NCBI GenBank assembly: GCA_031384515.1
Contig: JANNAQ010000013.1
Span: 40,495-104,494 of the forward strand
DNA length: 64,000 bases
Source of the DNA: Bacteroidia bacterium
GTDB taxonomy: Bacteria > Bacteroidota > Bacteroidia > Cytophagales > Cyclobacteriaceae
Direction: 5' to 3'
Shown here in pieces: positions 26,115-45,644 of this stretch. The notes under the pieces were generated by a model. That model ran no database searches. It was not told the DNA's origin and worked only from the letters and a program-made list of their open reading frames with translations. Position numbers and translations under genes: made by a program. How positions within the stretch are numbered: position 1 is the first letter of the stretch; the number at the start of each line of letters is the position of its first letter.

Positions 26115-28454
26115 ATGGAAAAAAATATAGAAAAAATTGCCAATGAATTAAATCTCTCCACGCAACAAGTAGAGATTGTTATTGAAATGTTGGTAGAGGG
26201 AGCGACTATCCCTTTTATGGCGCGTTACCGAAAAGAAATGACTGGTAGCCTGGATGAAGTACAACTGGCGGCAATTCGCGATCGCCATGAACAGCTTATG
26301 GAGTTGGATAAACGCAAGGAGGCAATTCTTAAGTCGATTGAGAAGCAGGAAAGGTTAACACCTGCATTAGCAAAAGATATTGAGCAGGCTGAGACGATGG
26401 TGGCATTGGAGGACATCTACCTTCCCTACAAACCTAAACGCAAAACACGCGCCAGCATAGCCAAGGAAAAAGGGCTTGAGCCATTAGCACTAAGTTTATT
26501 TGAGCAAGGTAAATTGGAGGTGGATAAACTTGCGGCCACGTATATTAATACAGAGTTGGGTGTGGCTAACATACAAGAAGCATTGGAAGGAGCACGAGAT
26601 ATCATGGCAGAATGGATCAGTGAAAATCAGGAAGCACGGAAAAATATTCGCGAAATCTTCTGGCAAGACGGTATCATCGAAGCCTCTGTGATAAAATCAA
26701 AGGCAGAAACGGAAGAGGCTCAAAAGTTTAAGGATTATTTTGAGTGGAAAGAGCCGATCAAAAAAACCCCTTCACACCGATTGCTCGCCATGCGCAGAGC
26801 CGAGAAAGAAGGATTTATTTCTTTAGACATTGCCCCCACCGAAGCACTTGCTATACAAACTCTGGAAAAGCAATTTATAAAAACGTCATCGCCAGTAGGC
26901 GAACAAGTTGGTATGGCTATTAAAGATTCGTATAAACGATTGTTAAAACCTTCGCTCGAAAGCGAGGTTCGAATAGAATCCAAACAACAAGCCGATGTAG
27001 AAGCAATCAAAGTATTTTCTTCCAACCTTAAAGAATTGCTTCTGGCTTCTCCTCTGGGACAAAAGCGAGTGATGGCACTTGACCCCGGGTTCAGGTCGGG
27101 CACTAAATTAGTTGCGTTAGGTGAGCAAGGAGAATTGCTTTTCAATACAGTGATTTATCCATTAGAACCGCAGCGCGAAACAGATAAGTCATCGGCTATC
27201 GTGATGGGGTTGTGCGATCGATTTAAAATTGAGGCAATCGCCATTGGCAATGGAACAGCTAGTAGAGAGACTGAATCATTTGTTAAGTCGCTGGGTCTTC
27301 CAAAAGAAATTTTGATAGTGATGGTTAATGAAAGCGGAGCTTCCATTTATTCGGCCAGCGATGTTGCTCGTGAAGAGTTCCCAGATCATGACATCACGGT
27401 GCGAGGTGCTGTATCAATCGGAAGAAGATTGACTGACCCATTGGCTGAGTTGGTAAAGATTGATGCAAAGTCAATTGGTGTGGGTCAATACCAACATGAT
27501 GTAGATCAAGTTAAATTAAAAGCTGGGCTTGATGATGTGGTGATGAGTTGTGTCAACTCTGTTGGGGTAGAGGTAAATACTTCGAGTAGAGAATTACTTT
27601 CTTATGTATCCGGATTGGGGCCTCAATTAGCAAAGAGTATAGTTGAATATAGAAATCAAAATGGAGCCTTTAAAGACCGACATTCTTTGCATAATGTGCC
27701 TCGCTTGGGTGAAAAAGCGTTTGAACAGTGTGCCGGTTTTTTGCGCATTCGTGATTCAAAAAATCCGTTAGATGCTAGTGCCGTGCATCCCGAGCGTTAT
27801 GAGCTGGTCGAAAAATTTGCGAGTGACTTAGGATGCACAGTAAAAGATTTAATGACAAATGCCGAGGTGCGAAAGAAGCTTGACCTCAAAAATTATGTGA
27901 GCGACACCGTTGGACTGCCTACATTAACTGATATATTGTTAGAACTAGAAAAGCCAGGTCGTGATCCACGTGAAAAGTTTGAGGTATTTTCTTTTGAAGA
28001 AGGCATTCACGAAATAAAAGATTTGAAGGTGGGGATGATGTTACCTGGTATTGTTACCAACGTCACCAACTTCGGGGCGTTTGTAGATGTGGGTGTGCAT
28101 CAAGATGGTCTTGTGCACATTAGTCATTTGAGTGACCGGTTTATTAAAGACCCAAGCCAGGTTATTTCTGTTCAGCAAAAAGTAAAGGTTACTGTAGTAG
28201 AGGTTGATGTCGCGCGCAAGCGAATTGCGTTGTCGATGAAGAGTGATCCTTTTGGGAATGCGCCTGCGAAATCAAGTGAACAAAAAACTTCTTCGCAACA
28301 GTCGAAGCCAGGATCTAAGCGTTCGGATTCCAAACATCCGGGGTCTGTGTCCTCACAGACACCAAATAAGAAACACACTTCAAATGCTCCTCTGAAAAAA
28401 GAAGAGTCTATGGAAGATAAGCTGGCACAGTTGAGAGAGAAGTTTAAGAGATAA
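26115..28454 (+). CDS. tex: Tex family RNA-binding transcriptional accessory protein
   Basis: GATIPFMARYRKE, ALDPGFRSGTK (YqgF-like), HhH region, S1 domain GAFVDVGVHQDGLVHIS. Confidence 0.96.
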   Translation: MEKNIEKIANELNLSTQQVEIVIEMLVEGATIPFMARYRKEMTGSLDEVQLAAIRDRHEQLMELDKRKEAILKSIEKQERLTPALAKDIEQAETMVALEDIYLPYKPKRKTRASIAKEKGLEPLALSLFEQGKLEVDKLAATYINTELGVANIQEALEGARDIMAEWISENQEARKNIREIFWQDGIIEASVIKSKAETEEAQKFKDYFEWKEPIKKTPSHRLLAMRRAEKEGFISLDIAPTEALAIQTLEKQFIKTSSPVGEQVGMAIKDSYKRLLKPSLESEVRIESKQQADVEAIKVFSSNLKELLLASPLGQKRVMALDPGFRSGTKLVALGEQGELLFNTVIYPLEPQRETDKSSAIVMGLCDRFKIEAIAIGNGTASRETESFVKSLGLPKEILIVMVNESGASIYSASDVAREEFPDHDITVRGAVSIGRRLTDPLAELVKIDAKSIGVGQYQHDVDQVKLKAGLDDVVMSCVNSVGVEVNTSSRELLSYVSGLGPQLAKSIVEYRNQNGAFKDRHSLHNVPRLGEKAFEQCAGFLRIRDSKNPLDASAVHPERYELVEKFASDLGCTVKDLMTNAEVRKKLDLKNYVSDTVGLPTLTDILLELEKPGRDPREKFEVFSFEEGIHEIKDLKVGMMLPGIVTNVTNFGAFVDVGVHQDGLVHISHLSDRFIKDPSQVISVQQKVKVTVVEVDVARKRIALSMKSDPFGNAPAKSSEQKTSSQQSKPGSKRSDSKHPGSVSSQTPNKKHTSNAPLKKEESMEDKLAQLREKFKR
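28380..28454 (+). repeat. tex 3'-end direct repeat, copy 1 (in the intact gene)
   Basis: Encodes SNAPLKKEESMEDKLAQLREKFKR*; 64/75 identical to 38244-38318. Confidence 0.92.
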
Positions 28455-28465
28455 AGTGTCGTTTC

Positions 28466-29443
28466 TTATTTCTTTATAAAAATAAAATCTCCGCCTTCAT
28501 CGACTACATCCTGGATGACTCCAAATTGAGGAACAATGTGAGTATTATTGGAAATGGGCTCAAACATTCTGGAGAAGAGAAGACGCGATGACATAAATAC
28601 TTCCGGGTTATCTCCTAATTTCTTCAATAGGAATTCAACAAAAACACTTTTGTCTGGCACGGTGCTTAGGTTTCCACTCGTCATGGCCCGTCTACTTTTG
28701 TCTTTATACAATTCATTGAATTTCATGATCATACTTGACGCATCTGCCCCGCGGGTTTTAAAGATGCTGCCGCTAAAGCAGGCATCAGCAATGAGTAAGG
28801 TATGTTTGGATTTGATCGCGCCCAGATAATCCTTCAGTGTGCTATTCGGTATCCAGGTGCTTTTATCTTTTATGTTGGCATCGGAGGCTAGCCAATAGCC
28901 AAAGTCTTTTTGTTTATCCCACACACCGTGGCCAGCATAAAAAACCAATACATTATCACGTTCTGTTACTACTTCCGATAAATGCTCCAGGGCGTTAATG
29001 ACATCGCTGCGGGTAGGGTTAGCAAGGTATTTTATGCGCTCGTCATCAAACGTATAATTCTCTTTAAGTACTTGTCTAAGTCTTTCCGCATCTTTTACCG
29101 GTTGATCCAAATTAGGCAATTCGGTAGTGGCGTTTTTGTAGTGCGCCACTCCCATAATCAGCGCATAGTACCTTGGAAGGTTATCCGCTGTAATCCCCAA
29201 TGTCTGCAAGGTTACTACCGATCTCTCTTCTGCTCTTTTTTTCTCTTCTGCAATTCGCGTTTCCTCGGCAAGCCGTAATTCCTCGGCACTTCGGTTTTGT
29301 TCGTCAGCAATCCTCTTCTCCTCTGCTACTACTGAGGCACCTTTAAAATTAATGGCATTGCTTTTTACTCTTGTAGTTTGCGCGGTTGATACCAAGCTAC
29401 TAAAAAGGAGCAGTGTAAAAAAGATATTTTTTTTCATATCCAT
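28466..29443 (-). CDS. Secreted caspase-family (peptidase C14) protein
   Basis: Signal peptide, AEE-rich coiled coil, YALIMGV..Y, catalytic FYAGHG (His) and IADACFSG (Cys). Confidence 0.92.
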   Translation of the reverse strand: MDMKKNIFFTLLLFSSLVSTAQTTRVKSNAINFKGASVVAEEKRIADEQNRSAEELRLAEETRIAEEKKRAEERSVVTLQTLGITADNLPRYYALIMGVAHYKNATTELPNLDQPVKDAERLRQVLKENYTFDDERIKYLANPTRSDVINALEHLSEVVTERDNVLVFYAGHGVWDKQKDFGYWLASDANIKDKSTWIPNSTLKDYLGAIKSKHTLLIADACFSGSIFKTRGADASSMIMKFNELYKDKSRRAMTSGNLSTVPDKSVFVEFLLKKLGDNPEVFMSSRLLFSRMFEPISNNTHIVPQFGVIQDVVDEGGDFIFIKK

Positions 29444-29447
29444 TCTT

Positions 29448-32400
29448 TTAATTCAACACAATTCGATAGAAACTTCTGCGATCGGAATAGTGAAACCTTA
29501 AGAAATAAATGCCAGCGGCAGGGCGATCACCTGTAACGGTAAAGCCATTCCACCGCAATTCATGCGAACCTGAAACTAAATCACCGGTATAAACATCTGT
29601 TACTTTCTGACCCAATGAATTGATCAAGTCAATGCTCACCGGATAACCTTTTCCCCAACCTGGAAGAGAAACAGTAATTTTTGTTTCACCATGCGATGGA
29701 TTAGGTGAGACAGAAAGAATCTTGCCCTCCCCATTTGGCATTTCCTTGGAGAGGTACTCGGAGTTGCCAAAAATAATTTTGAATCTCCCCGGTGTTTTAA
29801 AAAAATAGGAGTTGATGGTTCGCATATTGATGGACGCCTTTTCATTCTCATCGATTAGAAATAATTCTTTTTCATTTCCAGTGAAATGACTATTTCCCCA
29901 GTTGATAGATGCAAATTCTTTTTTGTTATTTGACTCGACAATAAATTTCCATGAATAATTTTCTGAAGTTGGGACAACATCTTTTGAAAACGGATTTCCG
30001 TTGATGACATTCTCATGGTTTAAGTCGATGTATTCTATAAATCGAGGAAGGCTAACATCGTCATATTTATCAAACCCGATTTTAGCATCTGATTGCATTC
30101 CAATTCCTGAGATAGAATTAACCAATTCACCTTGCTTTAAATTCAAGGCTAACTCCCAACTAGCAGATTCAAATGGATTGGATGGCGCAGTTTTACTTTC
30201 TGATATTCTTCCGCTTTTACTCCTGGAAGGAGGAAAAATAAGAATAGAGGCTTGCTCTGCGAAGACGAAGCCGCCTTCCATTTTTTTCAGGACTGTGGAA
30301 TTATCATAGGGTGCGCCCGTAAATATTTTTAGGGGTCTTGTGCCAATGAAAGAATTGGCATTCTGAATGTCGCTCCAGTCGATATTGAAATTGTATGGAT
30401 TGCCGATTTGATTCCAGCCTTGTTTAAGTTGTATGCTGAAAGGACTCGAAACGGATTTGCCGGGACCACCTGTTAATGCTTTGCCCGGATTATTCTTTAT
30501 CAGCAACCAATATCCCCAACCTGTTTCGATCGGATCTGATGCTACTAATTCCTTTGTTGAGTTTCCATCCCAATGCGACAATCTCCAATTAAATTGATCG
30601 AACTGTCCCAATTCGTCAAAAACGTTTCCGGCATTTTTATTATCAAGTTGATATGGAAAAGAAATGATCCTGTAGTTGGATTGGCCTGAGCCAAAATTAT
30701 CATAGGGTAACGGTGGTCCATCTGAGGGTTGTTTCACCGCTACAGGGTAGTGGGGAGTTTGCTCAGCAAGACCTAAACCATTTAAAGCTGTTATCCAATA
30801 CTCAACACCAATCTCACCGATAGCAGATGCCGGTATGGTAGCAACCCAATTGTTGCCTGTCAACGTCATTTCCAAAATTACTTCAGTGCTGGTGGTCAAT
30901 CGGTTTTTATAAAACAAAGAAGCATTAGCCACTCCTGATTCCGGATCAGTTATTTGCGCAGTGATCGCCAGAGACACGTCCTTGTCAACAATTGCAATTG
31001 GCGAATGAACAATTACAGGCTTGGTTGAGTCAATGGATTTGTTGCCTGTAAGAGGCGAAGCAGTACGATAGTTGATGGTAACGCCACTGCCATTGTAAGC
31101 ATACACTTGATAGAAATAGTTTGTGCCTGCAGTCAATCCTGTTTCATTGAAGGTTACGGCTGTGCCTACATAAGCAATTGTTCCATCGCCTATTGGTGAT
31201 GCAACTGCGTAGCCAGTCGCGTCCACTGGAAGGGATGTGGCTACTGATCCAGCTTTGCGAACTACTAGATATCCCGATGGTGTTCCGGTCGCTGCGGTGA
31301 AAGAAACGGTAAACGTAGTTGACCCTACATTGGAGAATACAAGTGCCGTTGGTTGAGAAGCAGGCTCCGTTGCTAACGTACTCTTACTTCCTTCAAGAGG
31401 TGAGGCAGTAAGATAGTTGAGGGTTGATCCGCTTCCATTGTAGGAAAAGACATCATAGAAATAAGTTGTTGAGGCGGTCAGCCCTGTTTCATTGAATGTT
31501 AAAGCGCTACCCACATACGCCACGGTACTTGCGCCAATTGCATTGCCAGTTGTGTATTCTGTTCCATCAAGCGGTACATCAGTAGGAGAAGAAACAGTTT
31601 TGCGTAGAACAATGTAACCGGCAGGCGAACCTAAAGCAGCTGTCCATGATAAGGTCATTGAAGTTGCCTGAACGTTGGAGAATAAAAGAGAAGTTGGTTG
31701 TGCGGTTGGTTCGGACGCAAGAGCTGGACTGGTGGTCTGATTGTTTTCAAGCGGACTAGTTGTTAGGTAATTATATGTTCCCGTTATTCCGTTGTAGGAG
31801 AAGATATCGTAGAAATATGTTGTTGAAGCAGTAAGTCCTGTTTCATTAAAAGTTAAAGCACTACCCACATACGCTACAGTGCTTGTGCCGATCGTATTGG
31901 TTGCCGAATATTCTGTTCCATCCAAAGGCACATCAGTTGGCGAAGAAACAGTTTTTCGAATAACGACATAACCAGCACGAGAGCCAGTCGCTGCTGTCCA
32001 ACTCAAGGTCATTGAAGTTGGTTGAACGCTGGAAAACGTAAGTGCTGTAGGTTGGGCAGTTGGTTCTGTTGCAAGTGTAGGACTGGTGGTCTGGTTATTT
32101 TCAAGCGGGCTAGTTGTTAAATAATTATACGTACCCGTTGTTCCGTTGTAGGAGAAGACATCATAAAAGTAATTTGTAGAAGGGATAAGCCCTGTTTCAA
32201 TGAAAGTTATTCCGCCAGCTGCATACGCTACGGTGCTGGTGCCAATCAGGTTGGTTGCGGAATATTCTGTTCCATCAACTGGCACATCTGTGGGAGAAGA
32301 AACAGTCTTGCGGAGAACAAGGTAACCTGCTGGAGAGCCAGTAGCGGCAATCCATGTTAACGTTATTGAAGTTGCCTGAACACTAGAAAAGCTGAGTGCA

Positions 32401-35400
32401 GTTGGTTGTGCGGTTGGTGGAGCAGCTAAAGTTGTTTGGGTTCCTACGAGCGGAGCAAGAGTTAAGTAATTATATGTACCCGTTGTTCCGTTGTAGGAAA
32501 ATACCTTGTAGAAATAATTTGTTGACGGTGCAAGACCTGTTTCATTAAAAGTTAACGCACTACCTGCATACGCCACGGTACTGGTGCCGATCGTATTGCC
32601 TGTTATGTATGCCGTTGCATCCACCGGTATATCGGTTAGCGAAGAAACAGTATTGCGAAGAACAATGTAACCGGCTGGAGAACTTGAAGCGGCTGCCCAG
32701 GTTAAGTTCATCGTAGTTGACTGAACGTTTGTAAAAATTAAAGAAGTTGGTTGTGCTGTTGGTTCAGTGGCAAGCGTTGTTTGATTATTTTCAAGTGGAC
32801 TTGTTGTTAGGTAATTATAAGTTCCCGTTGTTCCGTTGTACGAGAATACATCATAGAAGTAAGCAGTTGATGCAGTAAGTCCTGTTTCATTGAATGTTAA
32901 GGTACTGCCTACATATGCTACAGTGCTTGTGCCAATAGAGCCTGTTGCGGTATAAGATATTTCATCTACTGGAACGTCAGTAGGAGAAGACCCTGTTTTA
33001 CGAAGAACAAGATAGCCAGTAGGTGAACCTGTAGCTGCTGTCCAGTTTAAGGTCATTGAAGTTGGTTGAATGCTAGAGAATAAAAGGGAAGTAGGTTGCG
33101 TTGTCGGTTCCGTTGCAAGAGCAGAGCTCGTTGTTTGATTATTTTCAAGTGGACTAGTTGTTAAGTAATTGTATGTTCCGGTAGTTCCATTATAAGAGAA
33201 TACATCGTAGAAATAAGTAGTTGAAGCAGTAAGCCCAGTTTCATTAAACGTTAGGGCACTACCTGCATACGCTACGGTGCTGGTGCCAATCGTATTGGAT
33301 GCGGTGTATGCAGTTCCATCCACGGGCACATCGGTAGGAGATGAGCCTACTTTTCGAAGAACAATATAACCAACTGGAGAACCTGTCGCTGCTGTCCATG
33401 TTAAAGTCATTGAGTTCAATTGAACGCTGGAGAATAAAAGAGAAGTTGGTTGAGCCGTTGGCTCAGGTGCAAGGGTTGGGCTCGTTGTCTGATTGTTTTC
33501 GAGCGGAGTGGTAATTAAATAATTATACGTCCCCGTAGTTCCATTGTAAGAGAAGACATCATAAAAGTAATTTGTAGAAGGGATAAGCCCCGTTTCAATG
33601 AAAGTTATCCCGCTAGCTGCATACGCTACAGTGCTGGTGCCGATCAGGTTGGTTGCGGAATATTCTGTTCCATCCACGGGCACATCTGTGGGAGAAGAAA
33701 CAGTTTTGCGAAGTACGATATAACCAGCAGGAGAACCTGTTGCTGCTGTCCATGTTAAGGTCATTGAAGTAGATTGAATACTGGAGAAAGAAAGTGAAGT
33801 GGGTTGTGCAGTTGGTTCAGGGGCTAAAGTTGTAAGATTATTTACGAGCGGAACAGTTGTTAGATAATTGAACGTTCCTGTTGTTCCGTTGAAGGAGAAT
33901 ACATTGTAGAAATAATTCGTTGAAGCGGTAAGTCCAGTTTCATTGAATGTTAAAGCACTACCTGCATACGCCACTGTGCTTGTTCCTATGGTGTTGCCTA
34001 TTGTGTACACCGTTCCATCTACCGGCACATCTGTAGGCGAAGAAACAGTATTGCGAAGAACAATGTAACCTACCGGAGAGCCAGAAGCTGCTGCCCAGGT
34101 TACAGTCATAGTAGATGCCTGAATAGTAGTAAAAGTTAAAGAAGTGGGTTGCGCAGTTGGTTCAGAGGCTAAAGTTGTTTGACTTCCTTCCAGTGGCGTT
34201 GTGGTTAAATAATTATAAGTTCCGGTTGTTCCGTTGTAAGAGAATACATCGTAGAAATAAGTTGTTGAAGCGGTAAGCCCCGTTTCATTTAATGTTAAAG
34301 CATTGCCTGCATACGCTACGGTGCTGGTTCCAATTGCGTTGCCTATTGTGTATGCCGTTCCATCTATGGGTATCTCCGTTGGAGAAGAAATTGTTTTGCG
34401 AAGTACGATATAACCAGTTGGAGAACCTATTGCTGCTGTCCATGATAAGGTCATCGTAGTTGGCTGAACGCTGGAAAACGTAAGTGCTGTAGGTTGAGCA
34501 GTTGGTTCTGTTGCAAGGGTAGGACTGGTTGTCTGATTATTTTCGAGCGGACTAGTTGTTAAGTAATTATACGTTCCCGTAGTTCCATTATAAGAGAAGA
34601 TGTCATAGAAATAATTTGTTGAAGCGGTAAGACTTGTTTCATTAAAAGTTAATGCACTTCCTACATACGCTACGGTGCTGGTTCCAATTGTGTTGCCTAT
34701 TGTATATGCCGTTCCATCTATGGGCACATCCGTTGGAGAAGAAATTATTTTGCGAAGTACGATATAACCAGTTGGAGAACCTGTCGCTGCTGTCCATGAT
34801 AAGGTCAGCGAAGTTGGCTGAACGCTGGAAAACGTAAGTGCTGTAGGTTGAGCAGTTGGTTCTGAGATAATAGTAGTATTTCTAAAAACAGAAATCGAAT
34901 TATTTCCATTTCCCACTACTAAATCAGGCTTTCCATCACCGTCAATATCAGCAATGTTGACATCGTAGGAGGATTGCGTTTTTGGGAAATCAATTTTTGC
35001 GGCAAAAGAACTTGTATTGATCACACCGGATGAGCTGGTGTTTTTGTACACAGAGACGGTGTTGGTGCTTTCGCAAACAACTGCAATCTCCAGCTTCCCA
35101 TCACCATCAAGGTCACCCAATGCAACTCCTAAAGGTCTTGTGCCTGTCGTGAAATCAATATTGGCAGCAAAGGAACCCGTTGTGATTATCCCCTGGGTGG
35201 AAATGTTTCTGAATACAGAGACTTTAGCCCCTTGCAGAAGTACGACAGCAAGGTCAGGCTTGCCATCACCATCCAGATCACCAATGCCTACTCGGTTAGT
35301 CGGGCCACTGCCAGTAGTAAGATTAACTGTTGAAGCAAAGGAACCAGCCGAGATGGAACCTAAAGTAGAGGTGTTTTTCAATATAGAAATGTTATTGCTG

Positions 35401-37358: not shown

Positions 37359-37398
37359 TTATTCGGTGTAAAGAGCAAGCCTTTTCATAAACTTCATT

Positions 37399-38106: not shown

Positions 38107-38243
38107 GTATCGAAGTCTTGCGTAAAGAGAAAATACACCATGTTAAATCTACACAATATAAATTGGTTACAAAAAACGGGGGAGATTATTGCAAGGAGTA
38201 AGGCTTATGCTTTGAATAAGGGGCTTTAATAAAGAAGCCCTCC

Positions 38244-38318
38244 TCAAATGCTCCCGTAAAAAAAGAGGAATCTATAGAGGATAAACTGGCACAATTGAGA
38301 GAGAAGTTTAAGAAGTAA
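38244..38318 (+). repeat. tex 3'-end direct repeat, copy 2 (orphan tail)
   Basis: Encodes SNAPVKKEESIEDKLAQLREKFKK* with no upstream gene; weak homology extends to about 38232. Confidence 0.92.
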
Positions 38319-38352
38319 CAGATACAGTTTGCAAAACCGTATCTTTCTTTCT

Positions 38353-39318
38353 ATGAAGGGAATACTATTGTTAGCATCGATACTATTTGCTTATTCAGCA
38401 TCCGCACAGCGCATTAGTAATACGGCACTATATCGCAATGTAAGTTCAAACCAATATTTTCGTATTCATTACGAAAATGATTATTTCTCCACCACCGATA
38501 TTTATTACACCCAAGGCATTAATCTCGAGTATGTACACCCTGCCATCGGAAACTTTTTTACTTCAAAGCTATTAATTGGCTCGTCTTCCAAAGAAGTTAA
38601 ATTTGGAATTGCTCTGGAGCATGAAGGATACACCCCCACCAGTATTTCACATCCTGAAGTTCTTGTAGGCGACAGACCCTTTGCTGCTTGTTTGTTTCTT
38701 AAAACCTTCTCTATAATAAATGATTCAGTACGCAGAGTCCGTATTTCTTCTTCTCTTAGCGCAGGCGTAATCGGCCCAAGCGCATATGGCAAAGAAATGC
38801 AGGAAACTATCCATAGATGGATCAACGATACGCAACCGCTTGGATGGGAAAATCAGATTAACAACGATCTTATCCTCAATTATGAAGTTGAATATGTAGC
38901 TGAACTTTTCGCCTCTCCCGATTATTTTTCTCTCTCGGCCCAGGTTGGTGCCAATGTAGGCACGCTCAATGCAAAAGCCTTTACAGGAGTAATCATGATG
39001 GCTGGTATTTTTGATAATCCATTTATCAATTTTTCCAGGCAAAAAAGATTGAAACAAGTGTATGTGTATGCAGAACCCTTGCTGAACATTGTTGCCTACG
39101 ATGCCACCTTGCAAGGTGGTATGTTCAATAAAAATAGCCCTTACACAATACCTCGCGAAGATATTACGCGTTTGGTTTTTCAGGCAAATGTTGGAATTGT
39201 TGTTCGGATCAGGGCATTGCAGTTGGAATATTTCCAATCCTATCTCACCAAAGAATTTAGTACCGGTGGCACACATCTTTGGGGCGGCATTCGAATCGGA
39301 TGGTACCTACGTAAGTGA
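38353..39318 (+). CDS. Lipid A deacylase LpxR-family (DUF2219) outer membrane protein, copy 1
   Basis: HYENDYF..TD.YYTQG, YTPT.I......DRPFA, GWENQI, C-terminal WGGIRIGW; ATG at 38353 gives a signal peptide. Confidence 0.82.
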   Translation: MKGILLLASILFAYSASAQRISNTALYRNVSSNQYFRIHYENDYFSTTDIYYTQGINLEYVHPAIGNFFTSKLLIGSSSKEVKFGIALEHEGYTPTSISHPEVLVGDRPFAACLFLKTFSIINDSVRRVRISSSLSAGVIGPSAYGKEMQETIHRWINDTQPLGWENQINNDLILNYEVEYVAELFASPDYFSLSAQVGANVGTLNAKAFTGVIMMAGIFDNPFINFSRQKRLKQVYVYAEPLLNIVAYDATLQGGMFNKNSPYTIPREDITRLVFQANVGIVVRIRALQLEYFQSYLTKEFSTGGTHLWGGIRIGWYLRK

Positions 39319-39343
39319 GATATTCAGTAACGATTGAGTATAG

Positions 39344-39395
39344 CTACTCCAAAACTGGAAAATTATCCGTAGGGCTTTCGCGCAGATGATATTCC
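39344..39395 (-). repeat. Orphan 3'-end copy C of the gene at 40534-41058
   Basis: Encodes EYHLRESPTDNFPVLE*; 43/52 identical to 40534-40585. Confidence 0.9.
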
Positions 39396-39412
39396 CCAGT
39401 TTCCGCGTTACC

Positions 39413-39817
39413 TCACTTCGTCCAGTTTGCAATGTCAAGTCCTTTAATCCGCTTGAAGTGGTCTGAGTTATTTGTAACAAGTTGAAATTCACTCGTCATG
39501 GCTATACCTGCTATCAAAGTATCCGTATGCCCTATTTCTGTTCCTTTTCTTCATAGGTCAGCTTGAATTATGGCTGCCGCTTTTGCCATACGCAATGTCA
39601 ACGGAACTACTTTGTTTAATTCTACAAATTCTTCAAACCTTGTTAATTGTTTTCTTGCGTCCTTGTATAAAAGTCCGTTGAGAATTTCATAATAAGTGAT
39701 GATGCTTAAACTGATGAAGCCATGCTCCTTCAGGTGTTCGTCAACTTTTGCAATAACCTTCGGGTTGCCTCGTAAAAATTCCGAGAGAACATCGGTGTCA
39801 AGCATTGAGGGTTTCAT
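39413..39817 (-). pseudogene. vapC: VapC/PIN toxin with an in-frame TGA at codon 89
   Basis: MLDTDVLS, SIITYYEILNG; after TGA (39551-53) the same frame continues RKGTEIGHTDTLIAGIA...LVTNNSDHFKRIKGLDIANW. Confidence 0.88.
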
Positions 39818-40059
39818 AAGTCAATGCTGCGGTCAAAGAGCGTTGTCCTTGATTTTTTGGGTTGATTAAGAAAATCCGCATAGTCCTTGTTGCTCATGTC
39901 GCTAAAAGCTCCGCCAAATGAAAGAATTTTCTTCCGCAATCCATCTGAGGCAGATTGTTTGGTAGGAGGTGTCAGAGAATGAACAAACTGATAGAGTTCT
40001 TCTAACCGGTTAACCGGAACATCTTTCATCTCTTTTAAAATGGAATTTAATGTCAACAT
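39814..40059 (-). CDS. Putative antitoxin
   Basis: 81-aa ORF whose stop overlaps the PIN gene start (ATGA); own -7 element at 40077-40084. Confidence 0.7.
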   Translation of the reverse strand: MLTLNSILKEMKDVPVNRLEELYQFVHSLTPPTKQSASDGLRKKILSFGGAFSDMSNKDYADFLNQPKKSRTTLFDRSIDL

Positions 40060-40247
40060 TGTCGTCTAAATTTTGTCAAAGGTAGCGGAAAAATAGCGTT
40101 AATCAGTAGCACTAAGTTTAGTGAGTATGCGACAGATGAATTTACTAAATGATAAAAATTTTGTCATAAAGTAATACTATTTGATTGGCGTTGGATCATG
40201 ATTCAACCATGAATACAATCTGCTAAATTGGATATGAGAAGAACATT

Positions 40248-40289
40248 CTCTACTCCAGCACCGGAAAATTATCGGTAGGTCTTTCGCGA
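40248..40289 (-). repeat. Orphan 3'-end copy A of the gene at 40534-41058
   Basis: Encodes RERPTDNFPVLE*; 40/42 identical to 40532-40573. Confidence 0.92.
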
Positions 40290-40475
40290 GGGTGATGCAA
40301 AGACCGCCTTTAGATCATTTTGGGTTAACCCCGGGTAACTCTCAAAAATCATCTTTTCAGTCCAGCCATTAGCCAATAGATCCAAAATCAATTCAACTGA
40401 AATTCTTGTTCCTTTTATTGTCGGTTTGCCCAATAAAACTTCTTTATCTGACATAATATGTTCTTTCCAATTCAT
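40269..40475 (-). pseudogene. DUF433 antitoxin-like gene, 3'-truncated by repeat copy A
   Basis: LLGKPTIKGTRISVELILDLLANGW......YPGL...DLKAV; the last codons run out of frame into the duplicated tail; no DUF5615 partner. Confidence 0.8.
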
Positions 40476-40533
40476 ACATCAAATATATTAGTTTTCAGGC
40501 AGAAGCAGAATCCAGCTATTGAGCAATCTTGCT

Positions 40534-41058
40534 CTACTCCAGCACCGGAAAATTATCAGCAGGTCTTTCGCGAAGATGGTACTCCATAATGATGCGTGCG
40601 CAGGTATTCCATCGCAGAACGGGATCATTATTACCGTCTCTGTTGATAGCATCAGCATTCTCATAAAACTCCATGGCTTCGCGATACCATTCGTAGGCAT
40701 CAAAATCAGAACCGGGGGTTGTTGATTTCAATGCTGTTGCGCCCTGACGTTCATGAACAATTCCGGTATAATAAATTCTGGCGTATTCATCTTTCAAACT
40801 CTTGGAAATGCTTAATGCTTGATTGGCTGTCTTCGAGGATGATTCGCCAAATTGATCCGTTAAGGCAAGCAACAAAATAACGGAGGCGCGCTGATTGTCA
40901 GGCGTAATCAACAGAACATCCAGGCAGATGCTCTCCGCCAACCGCGGCTGATTGAGCAAGCGATAATGTTCCGCTTTACCGAGTGAAGATTCAATGCCTT
41001 CTTTTGAAAGCGGCTTCAATTCAAACACATTTGCTTCGGAGGTTGTTGCTGTTCTCAT
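40534..41058 (-). CDS. Hypothetical TPR-like helical protein downstream of sdhB ('gene X')
   Basis: 174 aa; KAEHYRLLNQP..AESICLDVL...DNQ.A...LLLALTDQF, YYTGIVHER, VLRWNTCAR; 31 bp after sdhB. Confidence 0.8.
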   Translation of the reverse strand: MRTATTSEANVFELKPLSKEGIESSLGKAEHYRLLNQPRLAESICLDVLLITPDNQRASVILLLALTDQFGESSSKTANQALSISKSLKDEYARIYYTGIVHERQGATALKSTTPGSDFDAYEWYREAMEFYENADAINRDGNNDPVLRWNTCARIIMEYHLRERPADNFPVLE

Positions 41059-41089
41059 GGCGTAGAATGCTAAAGTTGTACTATTTCTC

Positions 41090-41863
41090 TTATTTAAATA
41101 TACGAAAAAGCTTCGTGCCTACATACCTTAGAGCATTTCGGCACGCAGGCATTAGCGGATCATAGAATTTATCGGCTACCCGCTCTTTCAATGGAATAAT
41201 GGCATTGTCGGTGATAGTAATATTTTCGGGGCACACAGTAGTGCAGCATTTTGTGATGTTACAAAGGCCGATGCCGCCTTCGGTTTTCAAATCTTGTCTG
41301 CGATCCTCCACATCTAAGGGATGCATTTCAAGTGCCGCAGTATACACCATGTGCCGCGGACCAGCAAATTGTTCGTGCATATTATGCTCGCGCAAAACGT
41401 GACAAACATCCTGACAAAGAAAACATTCAATGCATTTTCTAAACTCTTGTACACGATCAATGTCAACCTGATCCATTCGCCAGGTGCCGTCTGGGGCATC
41501 GGGTGGACGAGGTTTGAATTTTTTTATTTTTTTCTTGATACGATAATTAATAGAAACGTCCGTTACTAAATCCCGGATTACCGGAAACGCTTTCATCGGT
41601 TGAAGTGTGATCGGCTTGTCCTTCGGCATGTCGCTCATACGGGTCATGCACATAAGTTTAGGATGTCCGTTTATTTCTGCAGAGCACGAGCCACACTTTC
41701 CGGCTTTACAATTCCACCGAACAGCTAAATCATTGGCGGACTCTGCCTGTATCTGATGTACGGCATCGAGCACAACCATACCTTCGGTGATCTCAGTTTT
41801 ATATTCCTGAAATTCTCCACCGCTGGAATTTGTGCGCCATATTTTGAACGTTACGTTTGGCAT
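41090..41863 (-). CDS. sdhB: Succinate dehydrogenase/fumarate reductase iron-sulfur subunit
   Basis: WNCKAGKCGSC, CIECFLCQDVC, CNITKCCTTVCP. Confidence 0.93.
   Translation of the reverse strand: MPNVTFKIWRTNSSGGEFQEYKTEITEGMVVLDAVHQIQAESANDLAVRWNCKAGKCGSCSAEINGHPKLMCMTRMSDMPKDKPITLQPMKAFPVIRDLVTDVSINYRIKKKIKKFKPRPPDAPDGTWRMDQVDIDRVQEFRKCIECFLCQDVCHVLREHNMHEQFAGPRHMVYTAALEMHPLDVEDRRQDLKTEGGIGLCNITKCCTTVCPENITITDNAIIPLKERVADKFYDPLMPACRNALRYVGTKLFRIFK
41116..41151. repeat. 36-bp REP-like palindrome inside the sdhB 3' end
   Basis: TGCCTACATACC-12 nt-GGCACGCAGGCA; 12-bp stem with 3 G.U pairs on the mRNA strand. Confidence 0.7.
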
Positions 41864-41899
41864 TTACTTCATGGTATAAATTTACTAAGGCATTCAAAC

Positions 41900-41927
41900 T
41901 GCCTACTGCTGTTTGCCTATTGCCTAC
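41900..41927. repeat. Heptamer tandem repeat in the sdhA-sdhB spacer
   Basis: TGCCTAC TGCTGTT TGCCTAT TGCCTAC. Confidence 0.6.
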
Positions 41928-41934
41928 TTTTAAC

Positions 41935-43755
41935 TTACTTCATCTCATTAATAATCGCCTGGAGATCTTCGCGCACAGGTGCTTTTGGAATTTTCTTTAC
42001 TTCCATATTTCCAGCTTCATCTTTGCGAATGGTGATGTTAACTTTTCCATACTCTTCGCTCTTCTCTGGAAAGTCTTCACGAAAATGTCCGCCTCTGCTT
42101 TCCTTGCGTTCTTTGGCTGCGCGAGCAATTGCTTCCGCCACAGTAACCATGTGATTTAATTCCAGTGCAGTGTGCCATCCAGGATTATAACCTCGATTAC
42201 CTCCGCATCCTGTTTTCTTCACCTGGTCACTAAATACTTTTATTTTACCGATGGCTTCTTCTAATTCATTTTCAACTCTAACAATGCCTACAAGCTCTTG
42301 CATCTTTTCTTGCAAGCCAGCCTGTATCTGAAAAGGATTTTCACCTACAGCATTGTCTTCTCGTTCAAAAGGAGCCAACGCCCATTTCGCTAGTTCTTCA
42401 ACTTGAATTTCGTTGACCTTTACAGCTTGTGTTTTCTTGGCATAGTTCGCTGCATACTTACCCGCACGCTGACCAAAAACCAACAGATCGGAAAGTGAAT
42501 TACCTCCCAATCGATTTGCGCCATGAAGACCTGCTGCACATTCTCCGGCTGCAAAGAGACCAGCCACACTTGTCATTTGGGTATCGGCATCAACACGCAC
42601 ACCCCCCATGATATAATGTGTGGTTGGCCCAACTTCCATTGGTTCTTTCGTAATATCAACACCAGCCAGTTCTTTGAACTGGTGATACATGCTTGGCAAC
42701 TTTTTTTTGATATGCTCCGGAGCATTTGATATTTTTTCTTTGATCCAGGCTATATCTAAAAAGACTCCACCATGTGGAGTGCCACGACCTGCTTTCACTT
42801 CACGCATGATGCACCGTGCAACATGATCGCGTGTGAGCAGCTCAGGTGGACGCTTTGCATTTTTATCGCCTTGTGTATAGCGCCATCCTTCTTCTTCATC
42901 TGTTGAAGTTTGCCCTTTATAATTGTCGGGGATATCGTCAAACATAAATCTCTTACCCAGATTATTTCTCAACACACCACCTTCGCCACGGACCCCTTCT
43001 GTAATTAATAGTCCGCGCACGCTTGGCGGCCACACCATTCCTGTAGGGTGAAATTGTACAAACTCCATGTCGATGAGTTCAGCCCCCGCATGATAAGCCA
43101 ATGAAATTCCACCGCCTGTGCAATCCCAACTGTTGCTGGAGATTTTATAGATCCTGCCCATGCCACCTGTAGCAATAATGACTGCCTTCGCCTGAAATAC
43201 TTTGAAGAGACCTTTCTCGCGATCATAGCCAAAAGCGCCAACTACCTTATCTCCTTCTTTTAATAGACTAATGATGGTGTACTCCTGATAGACTTCAATG
43301 TTTTGATGAATGGCGTGATCTTGTAAAGTCCTTATCATTTCAAGTCCGGTGCGATCGCCCACGTGCGCGAGGCGAGGATATTTATGACCACCAAAATTTC
43401 GCTGCAAAATTTTTCCATCCTCCGTTCTGTCAAACACTGCGCCCCATGCTTCTAATTCTCTCACACGGTCGGGCGCTTCTTTTGCATGCAACTCTGCCAT
43501 GCGCCAGTTATTTAGATATTGACCTCCACGCATGGTGTCGGCAAAGTGTACTTTCCAACTATCGCGATCATCTACATTTGCCAATGCAGCGGCCACACCA
43601 CCTTCGGCCATTACAGTATGTGCTTTTCCGAGCAACGACCTGCTGATCATCGCTACAGAAACTCCGGATGATGCTGCTTCAATGGCAGCGCGAAGACCGG
43701 CACCACCAGAGCCGATTACCAGTACATCATGTGTAAATGTTTCGTAGTTCGCCAT
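41935..43755 (-). CDS. sdhA: Succinate dehydrogenase/fumarate reductase flavoprotein
   Basis: GSGGAGLRAA, GKAHTVMAEGG, QFHPTG, HYIMGG, HGANRLGGNSL, RKESRGGHFR. Confidence 0.95.
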   Translation of the reverse strand: MANYETFTHDVLVIGSGGAGLRAAIEAASSGVSVAMISRSLLGKAHTVMAEGGVAAALANVDDRDSWKVHFADTMRGGQYLNNWRMAELHAKEAPDRVRELEAWGAVFDRTEDGKILQRNFGGHKYPRLAHVGDRTGLEMIRTLQDHAIHQNIEVYQEYTIISLLKEGDKVVGAFGYDREKGLFKVFQAKAVIIATGGMGRIYKISSNSWDCTGGGISLAYHAGAELIDMEFVQFHPTGMVWPPSVRGLLITEGVRGEGGVLRNNLGKRFMFDDIPDNYKGQTSTDEEEGWRYTQGDKNAKRPPELLTRDHVARCIMREVKAGRGTPHGGVFLDIAWIKEKISNAPEHIKKKLPSMYHQFKELAGVDITKEPMEVGPTTHYIMGGVRVDADTQMTSVAGLFAAGECAAGLHGANRLGGNSLSDLLVFGQRAGKYAANYAKKTQAVKVNEIQVEELAKWALAPFEREDNAVGENPFQIQAGLQEKMQELVGIVRVENELEEAIGKIKVFSDQVKKTGCGGNRGYNPGWHTALELNHMVTVAEAIARAAKERKESRGGHFREDFPEKSEEYGKVNITIRKDEAGNMEVKKIPKAPVREDLQAIINEMK

Positions 43756-44532
43756 TTAAAATAGTCTCCAGTCTGTCCAAATACCCATTGAGCAAAGTCG
43801 CACATAAAGATCTGCGAACATCACACCGAATAAACTAAACCATGCCCAGTTCATATGCCCTCTGTTAAGGCAACTAGAACAATTATAGACTTTTCGTTGT
43901 ATCGGTGATTTTGAAAGGCGGTCTTTAAATCCTCCTACCAAATGACGAAAGCTGTGACATCCAAATGTGTAGCCACCCAGTAGCGTAGCATTGAGTGTTA
44001 ATACCAACGTGCCAATGCCAATACCAAATGTCTTTTCACCTGTGGAAGCATCGATGAACCACATTGCTTTGAAAGCATCATAGGCAAGAAGGATCACAAA
44101 AATAACCGCCAGGTACATAAAGTAGCGATGAATATTTTGCATGATCAGCGGAAAGGAATTTTCACCGAGATACGTTTTGCGTGGCTCCGATACTGCGCAA
44201 GCCGGAGGGTCGGCCCAAAAGGATTTGTAATAAGCACCGCGATAATAATAACAAGTGAAACGCATACCACCTGGTGCCCATAGAATTAGTAAGGCTGGCG
44301 AAAACGGAATGATCATAGGCCACCACGAAGGCTTGGGTCCAAACCAACTGTGCGGGGAGTCGCCAAATATTTCCGGAGAATAAAAAGGGGAGAGATAAGG
44401 ACCAATCGCATAATGCTCACCCTGAAAGGCAGCCCAGGTTGCATACACGATAAAAGAAGAAAGTCCTATTAAAACAAATAGCGGGCGCACCCACCACATA
44501 TCTTTTCTTGCCGTAACGCCAAAGCCCACCAT
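43756..44532 (-). CDS. Membrane anchor subunit, Rv0249c/Sdh1-like
   Basis: Multi-TM; YLSPFYSP, RFTCYYYRGAYY, QNIHRYF, GYTFGCHSFRHLVGG, LNRGHMNWAW. Confidence 0.82.
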   Translation of the reverse strand: MVGFGVTARKDMWWVRPLFVLIGLSSFIVYATWAAFQGEHYAIGPYLSPFYSPEIFGDSPHSWFGPKPSWWPMIIPFSPALLILWAPGGMRFTCYYYRGAYYKSFWADPPACAVSEPRKTYLGENSFPLIMQNIHRYFMYLAVIFVILLAYDAFKAMWFIDASTGEKTFGIGIGTLVLTLNATLLGGYTFGCHSFRHLVGGFKDRLSKSPIQRKVYNCSSCLNRGHMNWAWFSLFGVMFADLYVRLCSMGIWTDWRLF

Positions 44533-44663
44533 TAATACTCGGTTAGGGTTAATTTTTATTGATGTTAGGAAAAAATAAAATAAAAAACAATAGTTACCAT
44601 GTGGGTTTTTCTATCTAGCGAGCCAATAAAATCCACGAAGGACGGCAAAACGTATATCATGGC

Positions 44664-45644
44664 ATGGGCATTGAACTTGTGAAAAAAGTAATTCTTCTCG
44701 CTTCCATGGGGATAGCATCTTCTACCTTAGGGCAACGCATCAACACGACTGCGTTGTATCGCAACGTCAGCGCGCAAAAGTATTTTCGGCTTCACTATGA
44801 GAACGATTATTTCTCAACCACCGACATCTATTATACACAAGGCATTAATCTTGAGTACGTACATCCAACGATTGGAAATTTTTTTACGTCCAGATTATTG
44901 GTGCATTCGGATTCGAAGGATGTTAAATTTGGCATTTCCCTTGAACACGAAGCGTATACACCTACCAGCATTGCTCACTCCGAAATTCTAGTGGGAGACC
45001 GGCCTTTCGCGGCAGTAGTATTTTTCAATACCTTTTCGGTTGTAAGTGATGCTATTCGCAGAGAGCGTGTTTCGTCTTCTCTTAGTGCAGGTGCAATCGG
45101 ACCTGTCGCGGGCGGTAAAGAAATACAGGAGACAATTCATCGCTGGATCAATGACACTCAACCGCAGGGGTGGCAGAACCAGATCCGTCTCGATGTTATC
45201 CTGAACTATCAGATAGACTACGAGCGGGAACTTTTAATGTATCCAAATCATTTTTTACTTTCTGGAAAAGCGGGTGCCCGTGTAGGCACCTTGAATACGA
45301 AAGCGTATGCAGGGGTTATTTTAATGGCTGGTTATTTTGACGATCCGTTTAAAGACTTTTCAAAACAAGAGAGAAAATTGCAAGCTTATCTGTATGCAGA
45401 GCCATTATTTCAAATTATTGGGTATGATGCAACATTACAGGGCGGCTTAGTTCATCGGGCCAGTCCCTATACTATATCAGTGAGTGACATCAGCCGATGG
45501 GTTTTGCAGGGAAACGTTGGCCTGGTTGTTAAAATTAATAGGGTGCAAGTGGAGTATTTTCAGTCCTACCTTACAAAAGAATTTGAAACAGGAGGGTCTC
45601 ATCTGTGGGGTGGAATTCGAATAGGCTGGTATTTAGACAGGTAA
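44664..45644 (+). CDS. LpxR-family (DUF2219) outer membrane protein, copy 2
   Basis: Collinear paralog of 38353-39318, roughly two-thirds identical by eye. Confidence 0.82.
   Translation: MGIELVKKVILLASMGIASSTLGQRINTTALYRNVSAQKYFRLHYENDYFSTTDIYYTQGINLEYVHPTIGNFFTSRLLVHSDSKDVKFGISLEHEAYTPTSIAHSEILVGDRPFAAVVFFNTFSVVSDAIRRERVSSSLSAGAIGPVAGGKEIQETIHRWINDTQPQGWQNQIRLDVILNYQIDYERELLMYPNHFLLSGKAGARVGTLNTKAYAGVILMAGYFDDPFKDFSKQERKLQAYLYAEPLFQIIGYDATLQGGLVHRASPYTISVSDISRWVLQGNVGLVVKINRVQVEYFQSYLTKEFETGGSHLWGGIRIGWYLDR

Follow-up and report, generated by a model that had tools for sequence, protein, structure and literature searches.

Stranded gene 3' ends in an integrase-free hotspot of a Cyclobacteriaceae genome, a locus probably spliced from the DNA of related lineages

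Genes and gene-end copies of the hotspot

The window analyzed here is a stretch of 64,000 nucleotides from a Bacteroidia bacterium of the family Cyclobacteriaceae (assembly GCA_031384515.1, contig JANNAQ010000013.1). At 22.9-40.5 kb it contains a variable hotspot that is flanked by two conserved blocks and has a gene order unlike that of every relative examined. The last 87 nt of tex are present twice and the last ~50 nt of gene X, the gene after sdhB, three times. All of these tails are in frame and retain their stop codon, which bears out a first-pass annotation that had described diverged 3'-end copies of both genes. Together, the tex and gene X tails flank a 9.8-kb surface-protein operon and two toxin-antitoxin cassettes.

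The intact tex gene (26115-28454, plus strand) encodes 779 aa with Pfam domains Tex_N, Tex_YqgF, HHH and S1, and its last 87 nt (28368-28454) constitute copy 1 of repeat family D17. The cargo between both tex tails (28466-38231, minus strand; Pfam and translation) codes for a caspase-like C14 peptidase (28466-29443), for a surface protein of 2636 aa of the fn3/FG-GAP/Kelch type (29448-37358) and for a small membrane-anchored protein (37399-38106), the last of these with an in-frame TAA at 37981-37983; the final 125 nt of the cargo, up to 38231, are upstream DNA. Directly thereafter lies the stranded tex 3' end (38232-38318, plus strand), 28 codons and a stop. It is 83% identical to the working tail (72 of 87 nt, in the same frame and with the same TAA stop), with 10 synonymous and 5 non-synonymous differences and a longest identical run of 19 nt. 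It ends 10 nt ahead of the first possible start (TTG at 38329) of lpxR1, a gene of the lipid A 3-O-deacylase family (38353-39318, plus strand; Pfam LpxR).

Beyond lpxR1 every feature up to and including the sdh genes lies on the minus strand. Contiguous with lpxR1, as in the L105-type order, is stranded gene X tail C (39344-39395; 17 codons and a stop). A vapB-vapC type toxin-antitoxin cassette follows (39413-40059; Pfam PIN and translation), composed of the antitoxin (39814-40059) and a PIN toxin (39413-39817) of full length that an in-frame TGA at 39551-39553 interrupts. Next comes a 118-nt flank (40132-40249), which in relatives L096 and L097 directly follows gene X. In those relatives the end of this flank (40132-40152, 21 nt) forms the 3' end of a convergent AAA_14/DUF4143 ATPase gene (Pfam), the rest of which is absent here. 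Stranded tail B (40250-40296, about 47 nt with its stop; the copy extends to 40296/40301) then abuts a segment (40297-40533) that holds the 58-nt spacer after gene X and a DUF433 antitoxin gene (Pfam) devoid of its last 57 nt and of its DUF5615 toxin partner. Indeed, this gene stops short of its natural end precisely where tail B starts (40296|40297), while full-length copies exist in L267, L272 and L273, so the earlier observation of a cargo gene cut exactly at a tail junction holds. Tails A and C differ at 7 synonymous and 2 non-synonymous positions; like the tex pair, they fit the earlier description of mostly synonymous change. The longest identical run is 11 nt for B/C and A/C and 26 nt for A/B, and an 11-nt run is identical across all three tails and L096.

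Gene X itself (40534-41058; 174 aa, no Pfam family) ends in the working tail A (its last 52 nt, 40534-40585) and is, by synteny in relatives, the conserved fourth gene after sdhCAB. It adjoins the core block on this side of the hotspot, sdhB, sdhA and the membrane anchor gene (41090-44532; Pfam), which shares 81-91% nucleotide identity with relatives until homology stops at 44593. Further on lies lpxR2 (44664-45644, plus strand), found at this position in no relative examined. The first-pass annotation had grouped the two LpxR genes with the tails. They are paralogues (68% aa identity), lpxR1 being the orthologue of the relatives' gene and lpxR2 a more distant copy, but nothing shows that they arose by the same process as the tails.

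Relatives and the genome-wide pattern

Segment by segment, the hotspot is colinear with different relatives. Tail C and lpxR1 correspond to L105 and L102 (window 38331-39390 aligns colinearly with L105), and tail B with the 118-nt flank corresponds to L096 and L097 (window 40132-40296 matches L096 645-481 at 94%). Gene X, spacer and DUF433 are colinear with L267, L272 and L273 up to 40297, all three of which carry the full DUF433-DUF5615 pair. Within gene X, a recombination breakpoint appears in comparison with L097, where a single mismatch falls in the first 143 nt, against 33 in the other 382 nt (Fisher p = 3e-4). Emptier alleles, which had been proposed as a check, do exist: in L102 and L105 gene X stands directly against lpxR1, and in L096 and L097 the gene X tail is followed directly by the flank found here after tail B. 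The corresponding tex-lpxR1 pair, however, was not found in the genomes sampled, nor was a donor with tex adjoining the surface-protein operon among the genomes searched. With 72 of 87 nt identical, the tex tails are as far apart as either one is from a different species (73 and 71 of 87 nt), and a lineage-specific SNAP motif in the stranded tail is common only to the window's tex and G050. Among ~155 relatives, only 1 has a stranded gene X tail. Independently, the distant relative L153 carries such a tail after a ParE cassette.

L267 is a near-identical sister strain with a different cassette allele. Over 1456 nt its sequence is exactly that of the window, and the mismatches are concentrated around the differing core, no more than about 86 nt from it on either side. 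This points to homologous crossovers at both ends of the allele swap; ordinary double homologous replacement also acts here.

The genome scan suggested by the first-pass annotation revealed a broader pattern. Short same-strand copies of gene 3' ends lie downstream in 20 cases and upstream in 4 genome-wide (binomial p = 8e-4), and downstream 3'-end copies are far commoner than the mirror classes. About 11 cases are of the insertion type, at about 10 different target genes. Besides the targets described above, these include lipA, a Y-family (ImpB/MucB/SamB) DNA polymerase, BrkB, SnoaL and an amidohydrolase; their cargo includes ParDE, a DUF4143 ATPase, Y1 transposase-like genes and surface proteins, and both targets and cargo are unrelated. 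The repeats are 27-170 nt long and about 83-95% identical, and homology generally ends at the stop codon, with some repeats spanning gene junctions (C10, C4, C48). For nine insertion-type pairs pS is 0.46 and pN 0.045 (ratio 0.10; binomial p = 3e-11 against the expectation under neutral decay of one copy), and all 10 differences of the lipA pair are synonymous. With divergence so nearly exclusively synonymous, the two copies of a repeat come from different lineages and not from on-the-spot duplication, which agrees with the acquisition from relatives first proposed for the tails.

A search for mobility functions agreed with the recombinase-free picture drawn earlier. No sizeable ORF of 28.4-45.6 kb has a Pfam recombinase or transposase domain, and the only five tyrosine recombinases of the genome lie neither on this contig nor next to any of the about 11 cases. 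No further copy of the tex or gene X tail, including an attP-like one, exists elsewhere in the genome. Ku is encoded, as are ComEC and DprA, the competence genes put forward as a check, but the latter two are also present in most control genomes.

Alternatives to splicing

The tail junctions are real and not assembly chimeras, a concern raised from the start, because most of them recur in independent assemblies. They are reproduced exactly or nearly so in two other assemblies, represented by Logan contigs L270, L274 and L268 and by L267, an NCBI contig from another MAG. L270 and L274, which come from the same run, match window 39613-41054 and 28385-31828, respectively, at 100% identity; L267 spans 37844-39385, is identical to the window from 37844 on and reproduces the stranded-tex-tail junction. 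A misjoining of contigs from co-occurring related strains or species might be suspected in a 99-contig, MAG-like assembly, particularly as a related strain (L267) does co-occur and L274 stops at 28385, just within the tex repeat. Yet all identical runs between the tails are shorter than Logan's 31-nt k-mers, and the tails invariably lie downstream of the intact gene, in its orientation and reading frame, and terminate at the stop, unlike random misjoins, rendering an artefact extremely improbable. Alternatively, a staggered break or repair synthesis could copy 30-170 nt of the target upon insertion, with the copies diverging afterwards. Such long target duplication is described for restriction-modification genes (Nobusato et al. 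2000; Furuta, Abe and Kobayashi 2010, PMC2853133), where selfish or addiction-type genes likewise lie between direct repeats of local sequence >30 bp in length that often overlap a gene 3' end, mobility genes are absent and the empty genome has one copy of the target. The single-copy target in the emptier relatives, the frequent addiction modules and even the junction-crossing repeats would suit it. In contrast to the present tails, however, the published copies are near-identical and resemble each other more than another strain (PMC2853133), whereas about half of the synonymous sites differ here, and the cargo consists of toxin-antitoxin modules, Y1 transposase-like genes and surface-protein operons. 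The synonymous bias, free of frameshifts or stops, is unlike a non-functional copy decaying in place and disfavors target duplication for the diverged pairs, making it very unlikely.

Integrative elements such as e14 and phage 21 in icd of E. coli carry a replacement gene end, and integrase-less CIMEs (CIME/ICE) accrete in tandem at the fda 3' end in streptococci; these systems rely on a tyrosine recombinase and a fixed crossover core. There too, a foreign, synonymously diverged 3' end keeps the gene intact, the native end is stranded on the far side and multi-copy arrays arise. Stacked, integrase-less remnants or satellites of such site-specific elements, with the recombinase acting in trans or lost, would account for a reading frame restored by direct repeats, the polarized array of three gene X tails, their common 11-nt run and the independent case in L153. 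This is nevertheless rather doubtful, given the missing recombinases and attP-like copy, the many targets, the rarity of stranded gene X tails among relatives and the inner junctions, which cut a cargo gene (DUF433) and vary in position by allele (gene X tail length: 42 nt in L267, 52 nt here). Unlikely as well is a dedicated, undescribed mobility cycle, in which the gene tail would serve as a portable homology handle, the repeats releasing a circle of tail and cargo that re-enters at the same gene end elsewhere, to be exploited by addiction modules. Toxin-antitoxin cargo does recur (DUF433-DUF5615 and VapBC at gene X, ParDE at lipA, ParE at gene X in L153), the tail B unit includes the ends of both convergent genes, as expected of an excised repeat unit, and a similar life cycle has been proposed for restriction-modification genes (PMC2853133). 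But the circle is hypothetical, short and diverged repeats disfavor RecA excision and re-entry, and the cargo is mixed, including ordinary metabolic and surface genes; selection for intact genes together with stable repeats can account for the pattern with no dedicated mechanism.

Splicing by general recombination

The hotspot was probably assembled by splicing DNA of related lineages through general recombination without an integrase, each splice having one homologous and one illegitimate junction. Pieces from lineages with differing gene orders would have been joined into the present order, with the homologous junction in a conserved gene (tex, gene X or lpxR1) and the other at a few bases of microhomology. 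Each splice does pair a relative-colinear junction with a few-base microhomology junction, in line with the junction pair anticipated by the first-pass annotation. Two routes may apply. [quoted passage not shown] Intact gene, cargo and stranded tail would be what is seen because only products with a whole housekeeping gene survive, and short, diverged repeats would persist better because they are less prone to recombine out. Finished alleles then pass between strains by ordinary double crossover. The repeated acquisition of cargo from relatives that was first envisaged is partly supported.

Both routes have precedents. Single crossover of recircularized DNA yields direct duplications of 109-950 bp on both sides of the insert, the signature of that route, with no site-specific recombinase and an illegitimate junction at recircularization (Amarir-Bouhram et al. 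2011, PMC3240628). That was shown with identical homology on an E. coli plasmid, whereas the repeats here are of 27-170 nt, from other lineages, with identical runs of 11-26 nt. HFIR (de Vries and Wackernagel 2002; Prudhomme et al. 2002; via PMC3240628) also combines one homologous anchor with one microhomology junction (3-10 bp) and imports foreign DNA of about 1 kb from relatives, but its canonical outcome is insertion plus deletion. The HFIR with gene-end replacement proposed earlier thus agrees with the junction pair and the lack of an integrase, but not with duplication (PMC3240628); a stranded tail would fit only as an imported donor-fragment edge, and natural competence in this group is putative. 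At the DUF433|tail B junction, an overwrite with loss of the DUF433 end and of the toxin gene is no worse a reading; relative to the L267 allele, 911 nt went in and 456 nt out, which fits the insertion-plus-deletion outcome of HFIR. The entry route of the DNA and the choice between Campbell type and HFIR at each junction are a matter of interpretation, and the data fit two origins of a stranded tail alike: it may be the old resident end, pushed aside, or the edge of incoming donor DNA whose anchor lay on the far side.

Several points weigh against splicing. Identical runs of 19 nt (tex) and 11 nt (gene X B/C and A/C) are short for a RecA-dependent crossover within the tail, the 11-nt core would suit a site-specific recombinase too, canonical HFIR predicts no duplications, and neither the tex donor nor the tex-lpxR1 pair turned up in the genomes searched. 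If splicing is nonetheless correct, the surplus, unused ends of two housekeeping genes, 15-30 codons in length, would mark splice sites of related bacteria's DNA, a well-resolved example of an under-described way by which bacteria gain and swap small gene cassettes.

Integrase-free hotspots (Oliveira et al. 2017) and minimal mobile elements (Saunders and Snyder 2002) are reportedly exchanged by flanking homologous recombination. These models predict no stranded gene-end copies inside a hotspot, but a variable segment between conserved genes, swapped by double crossover, is exactly what L267 and the window present.

Stranded gene ends between tex and the sdh block

Downstream of the intact tex gene (26115-28454, + strand), three genes form an operon on the opposite strand (28466-38106, -); their products are a caspase-like peptidase, a surface protein of 2636 aa and a small protein with a membrane anchor. 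The final 87 nt of tex then occur once more (38232-38318). Next come lpxR1 (38353-39318, +), the first of two LpxR paralogues, and 52 nt that repeat the end of gene X, the gene after sdhB; this copy is termed tail C (39344-39395, -). Between tail C and gene X itself (40534-41058), which includes the working end, tail A, lie a toxin-antitoxin pair of vapBC type (39413-40059), a 118-nt flank (40132-40249), another copy of the gene X end (tail B, 40250-40296) and a truncated DUF433 antitoxin gene (40297-40475). Beyond gene X are sdhB, sdhA, the anchor gene and then lpxR2. Spare in-frame copies of a gene's last codons, set apart from the intact gene, are called stranded tails here. All tex and gene X repeats are in direct orientation, keep the reading frame and contain the stop codon in every copy, and three such scars are stacked at this locus. 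The host is an uncultured member of the Cytophagales near Chryseolinea and Chryseosolibacter, in whose relatives gene X is conserved as the fourth gene, after sdhCAB.

Much of this layout is reproduced in independent assemblies. One Logan contig (L270) is 100% identical to 39613-41054, comprising gene X, tail A, the cut DUF433 gene, tail B, the flank, vapB and the start of vapC. Another (L274) is 100% identical to 28385-31828, comprising the tex tail and the start of its cargo. Contigs matching exactly or with up to 10 mismatches are present in runs SRR20217175, SRR20217212 and SRR20217213. A contig from a different MAG of a sister strain, outside this genome's assembly (L267), spans 37844-39385 with 4 mismatches, taking in the last part of the cargo, the stranded copy of the tex end, lpxR1 and tail C. 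The sole uncovered junction is 39395|39396, between vapC and tail C: a further Logan contig (L268) ends at 39386, L270 begins at 39613 and L267 has another allele. Since most junctions are covered by other assemblies, misassembly is unlikely and was rejected as an explanation. The duplicated gene ends described in the first-pass annotation are confirmed as in-frame tails of tex and gene X. L274 begins at 28385, 70 nt before the tex stop and just inside the repeat; the break could be a strain-level branch in that sample, with an alternative continuation after tex.

The LpxR pair had been counted as part of the same pattern. Two paralogues are indeed present (68% identical), but their membership in the tail-duplication pattern is not borne out. 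In every relative examined lpxR2 is without a counterpart at its position, homology to all of them stopping at 44593, about 60 nt upstream of the sdh anchor gene (region 44593-45700); the addition of lpxR2, across the sdh block from the tails, is thus specific to this lineage. Among the cargo, the VapC (PIN) toxin gene (39413-39817) is full length and contains an in-frame TGA at 39551-39553, with the antitoxin gene intact; VapC is probably dead in this cassette. In the surface-protein operon, the first gene has a signal peptide at 38106, a C-terminal membrane anchor and an in-frame TAA (37981-37983) after codon 41; L275, a Logan contig of a different run, was called with the same shortened 130-aa product. 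Pairs of a giant surface protein and, after it, a caspase-like C14 peptidase recur in multiple copies throughout the genus (L246-L264), and none of the copies examined on these contigs adjoins tex.

Alleles and gene orders in relatives

The sister-strain contig L267 carries a different allele in the middle of the locus. It is 100% identical to the window over 37844-39299, has 4 mismatches in 39300-39385, and then carries the end of DUF433 and a DUF5615 gene in place of the window's tail B, flank and vapBC. Colinearity with the window returns at 40297-40502, where all 5 mismatches fall in 40299-40383. Identity on the outside, about 5% divergence over some 86 nt on each side and a different core indicate that the allele was swapped by two homologous crossovers, which the alignment places in the end of lpxR1 and in DUF433. 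The stranded gene X tail is 42 nt long in L267 versus 52 nt in the window, so the illegitimate junctions differ between the two alleles. Compared with the allele shared by L267 and two relatives' contigs (L272 and L273), the window is without 456 nt (the DUF433 end and DUF5615) and has 911 nt in their place. Gene X is itself a mosaic relative to 104-628 of L097: a single mismatch falls in the first 143 nt, against 33 in the other 382 (Fisher p = 3e-4), which implies that homologous exchange within gene X has occurred and that the breakpoint is recent.

Gene orders found between the tails also occur in relatives. In L102 and L105, gene X directly adjoins a convergent lpxR1, and the window is colinear with L105 over 38331-39390, tail C included. 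In L096 and L097, which have the closest gene X (97% aa), its end leads directly into the 118 nt found after tail B here (94% over 165 nt); a convergent AAA_14/DUF4143 ATPase gene follows this flank, and the window retains just its last 21 nt. In L272 and L273, gene X is followed by the same 58-nt spacer and then by an uncut DUF433-DUF5615 pair; both contigs are colinear with the window at ~91% up to exactly 40297. Every between-tail segment therefore corresponds to a gene order existing elsewhere, and each one starts or stops inside the last few dozen bases of a gene. The first-pass annotation had asked whether empty alleles exist, tex-lpxR and geneX-lpxR. Emptier alleles were recovered as geneX-lpxR1 (L102/L105) and gene X-flank (L096/L097), but tex next to lpxR1 was not found in relatives, whose closest lpxR1 homologues are ~80% identical and have other neighbours.

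The tex side is less well matched. Synteny with L096 picks up again only at 22854, so that 22.9-40.5 kb, tex included, is variable with respect to that relative. A tex gene is present in 81 of 121 genomes of the genus, was not found in relatives' genomes G041-G045 and has different neighbours in G050 and G124, two further relatives in which sliding identity along tex gave no clear breakpoint. A genus-wide look at caspase-like genes as a donor context for the tex cargo found none beside tex, and exact-protein look-ups with tex and gene X returned no match. The gene X end has been used more than once: a distant relative (L153, 10508-11648) carries gene X, then a ParE cassette and then a 60-nt stranded gene X tail, 95% identical, which is an independent hit at the same gene end.

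Genome-wide census and divergence of the copies

The scan for out-of-context 3' ends proposed by the first-pass annotation was carried out by taking the terminal 90-360 nt of each ORF of 120 aa or more, searching them against the genome and counting short copies by class. Copies of 3' ends lie downstream on the same strand in 20 cases and upstream in 4 (binomial p = 8e-4), and copies of 5' ends downstream in 7 and upstream in 5. Their downstream position is explained by selection, which keeps genes intact. About 11 of the cases are insertions carrying unique cargo, 3 of them in the window. Elsewhere, ParDE sits behind lipA, Y1 transposase-like genes behind both BrkB and a Y-family (ImpB/MucB/SamB) DNA polymerase gene, and a DUF4143 ATPase behind a SnoaL gene; an amidohydrolase is followed by an outer-membrane and Kelch/TIG pair, a molybdoenzyme gene by a 7.7-kb block, a YdeI-like gene by two genes and porP by a short insert. 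Set apart from the insertions are 5-6 cases in which a unit containing the gene end is duplicated in tandem (contigs C7 twice, C38, C61, C66 and C97), and repeats also cross gene junctions at C10, C4 and C48. No empty allele was obtained for the lipA and BrkB cases, where relatives are too diverged; at the BrkB junction, G050 carries a different 1-kb insert.

The copies of each pair are strongly diverged and yet bear the mark of purifying selection. Across nine insertion-type pairs, pS is 0.46 and pN 0.045 (ratio 0.10), which differs from the expectation for one copy drifting neutrally after in-place duplication (binomial p 3e-11). For instance, the lipA pair has 10 synonymous changes, differing stop codons and no amino-acid change. 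Repeat homology mostly stops at the stop codon, and none of the stranded copies in 11 pairs aligned without gaps has a frameshift or premature stop. The stranded tex tail has a lineage-specific motif in common with the window's tex and G050, and the three are about equidistant (72, 73 and 71 of 87 nt). Taken together, the pN/pS ratio, the intact frames and the equidistance of the tex copies indicate that the members of each pair were working gene ends in different lineages until recently. On-the-spot duplication is thereby excluded for the diverged pairs, and in-place duplication followed by decay is rejected on pN/pS.

Two further features of the census cases were noted. The stranded molybdoenzyme copy (C5, 65783-65963) is a composite in which an internal piece of 79 nt abuts the final 42 nt and 65 nt of DNA from downstream. 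Stranded fragments of greater length therefore exist, and internal deletion shrinks them. A ~120-nt MITE- or REP-like repeat (C10, 45838-45958 and 41320-41445, corresponding to 4838-4958 and 320-445 of L192) has dozens of copies in G041, G042 and G050, and the cassettes at C10 and C48 have short repeats related to it on either side of their Y1 transposase-like genes.

Recombination routes and known systems

Many chromosomal hotspots of gene gain are without mobile-element genes, and how DNA enters them is largely inferred. Site-specific integrative elements of the e14/icd type and CIME arrays resemble this locus in the diverged in-frame end that restores the gene, as is true of tex and gene X, and in their stacking. 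However, e14 in icd and tandem CIME arrays need a recombinase, and no recombinase domain was found within 28.4-45.6 kb. A genome-wide search for Phage_integrase matches gave 5 tyrosine recombinases, none on the window's contig or near any case, and a self-encoded integrase is rejected on these grounds. No extra tail copies that might be attP sites were found in the genome. An identical run is present within the repeats of each gene, 11 nt in gene X and 19 nt in tex, and might mark a crossover core, but stranded gene X tails do not all begin at the same point (42 nt in L267, 47 and 52 nt in the window). Integron cassettes combine attC with IntI; the repeats here are coding gene ends, and the contig has no integrase. 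The closest described phenomenon is the 'insertion with long target duplication' of restriction-modification genes (Nobusato 2000; Furuta 2010; PMC2853133), which shares long local repeats, overlap with gene ends, addiction-type cargo and a lack of mobility genes. Here too, the repeats consist of >30 bp of target sequence, mobility genes are lacking, and genomes without the insert have one copy of the target. The repeat copies in that phenomenon are near-identical (PMC2853133), whereas here pS is 0.46 and pN/pS 0.10, and the copies are not closer to each other than to other strains, the tex tails and G050 being equidistant. The allele swap in L267, for its part, matches integrase-free hotspots exchanged via flanking homology.

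Only 3-9 nt are shared at the inner junctions (38231|38232, 40296|40297 and 39395|39396); a cargo gene is cut at one of them, and their positions shift from allele to allele. Together with the lack of a recombinase or attP copy, this points to splicing by general recombination, each splice having a homologous junction on one side and an illegitimate one on the other. Two known routes give such products. Homology-facilitated illegitimate recombination (HFIR) of a linear fragment normally yields an insertion plus a deletion, with 3-10 bp of microhomology (PMC3240628), and a colinear junction (L105, L096 and L272) paired with an illegitimate junction of that kind is what is seen here. By this route a stranded tail would best be read as the imported edge of a donor fragment with its anchor on the far side. 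The DUF433|tail B junction would fit such an edge, with 911 nt in and 456 nt lost, including a toxin gene; the duplications argue against canonical HFIR. In a Campbell-type event, a recircularised fragment enters by single crossover and the homologous piece ends up duplicated; such events were 56 of the 60 in one study (PMC3240628). Direct duplication of a homologous piece around the insert with the gene intact is indeed found, and the repeats at C10, C4 and C48 fit as well. The gene end would then be duplicated, with both copies donor-recipient hybrids, although identical runs of 11-19 nt argue against a crossover inside the tail itself. Short, diverged repeats are less likely to recombine out, so that survivors would be biased toward them. 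That cargo was acquired from relatives by recombination is partly supported by the diverged copies and colinear relatives, but the proposed direction, with the old tail left behind, is unproven. It is also conceivable, if improbable, that tail repeats release a tail-plus-cargo circle that re-enters relatives at the same gene end, a recombinase-free cycle whose riders would be mainly addiction modules (toxin-antitoxin here, restriction-modification elsewhere); if true, bacteria in general would have a way of moving genes that is so far undescribed.

Stranded tails are a poorly described footprint, of which this locus is a well-resolved example; it is a variant of known recombination outcomes and no new machine. 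No systematic description of stranded tails was found in the literature searched. Stranded gene ends provide a readable footprint of splicing, recording both the related-lineage origin of the DNA and the site of the illegitimate junction, and in combination with strain-level alleles they reveal that the products then spread by ordinary homologous recombination. This locus contributes a stack of three scars, emptier alleles in relatives, an allele from a sister strain in which the crossover zones are mapped, and the accompanying genome-wide census. The recurrent toxin-antitoxin cassettes, with toxins lost or inactivated at junctions, bear on the spread and decay of addiction modules.

As for the machinery, the competence genes ComEC and DprA suggested for checking are both present, but they are found also in 10-11 of 14 control genomes, some of them non-competent. 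Among the three proteins considered, only a Ku homologue (C26, 70519-71064) is uncommon in the control genomes, occurring in 1 of 14, and it may provide an end-joining route for the illegitimate junctions.
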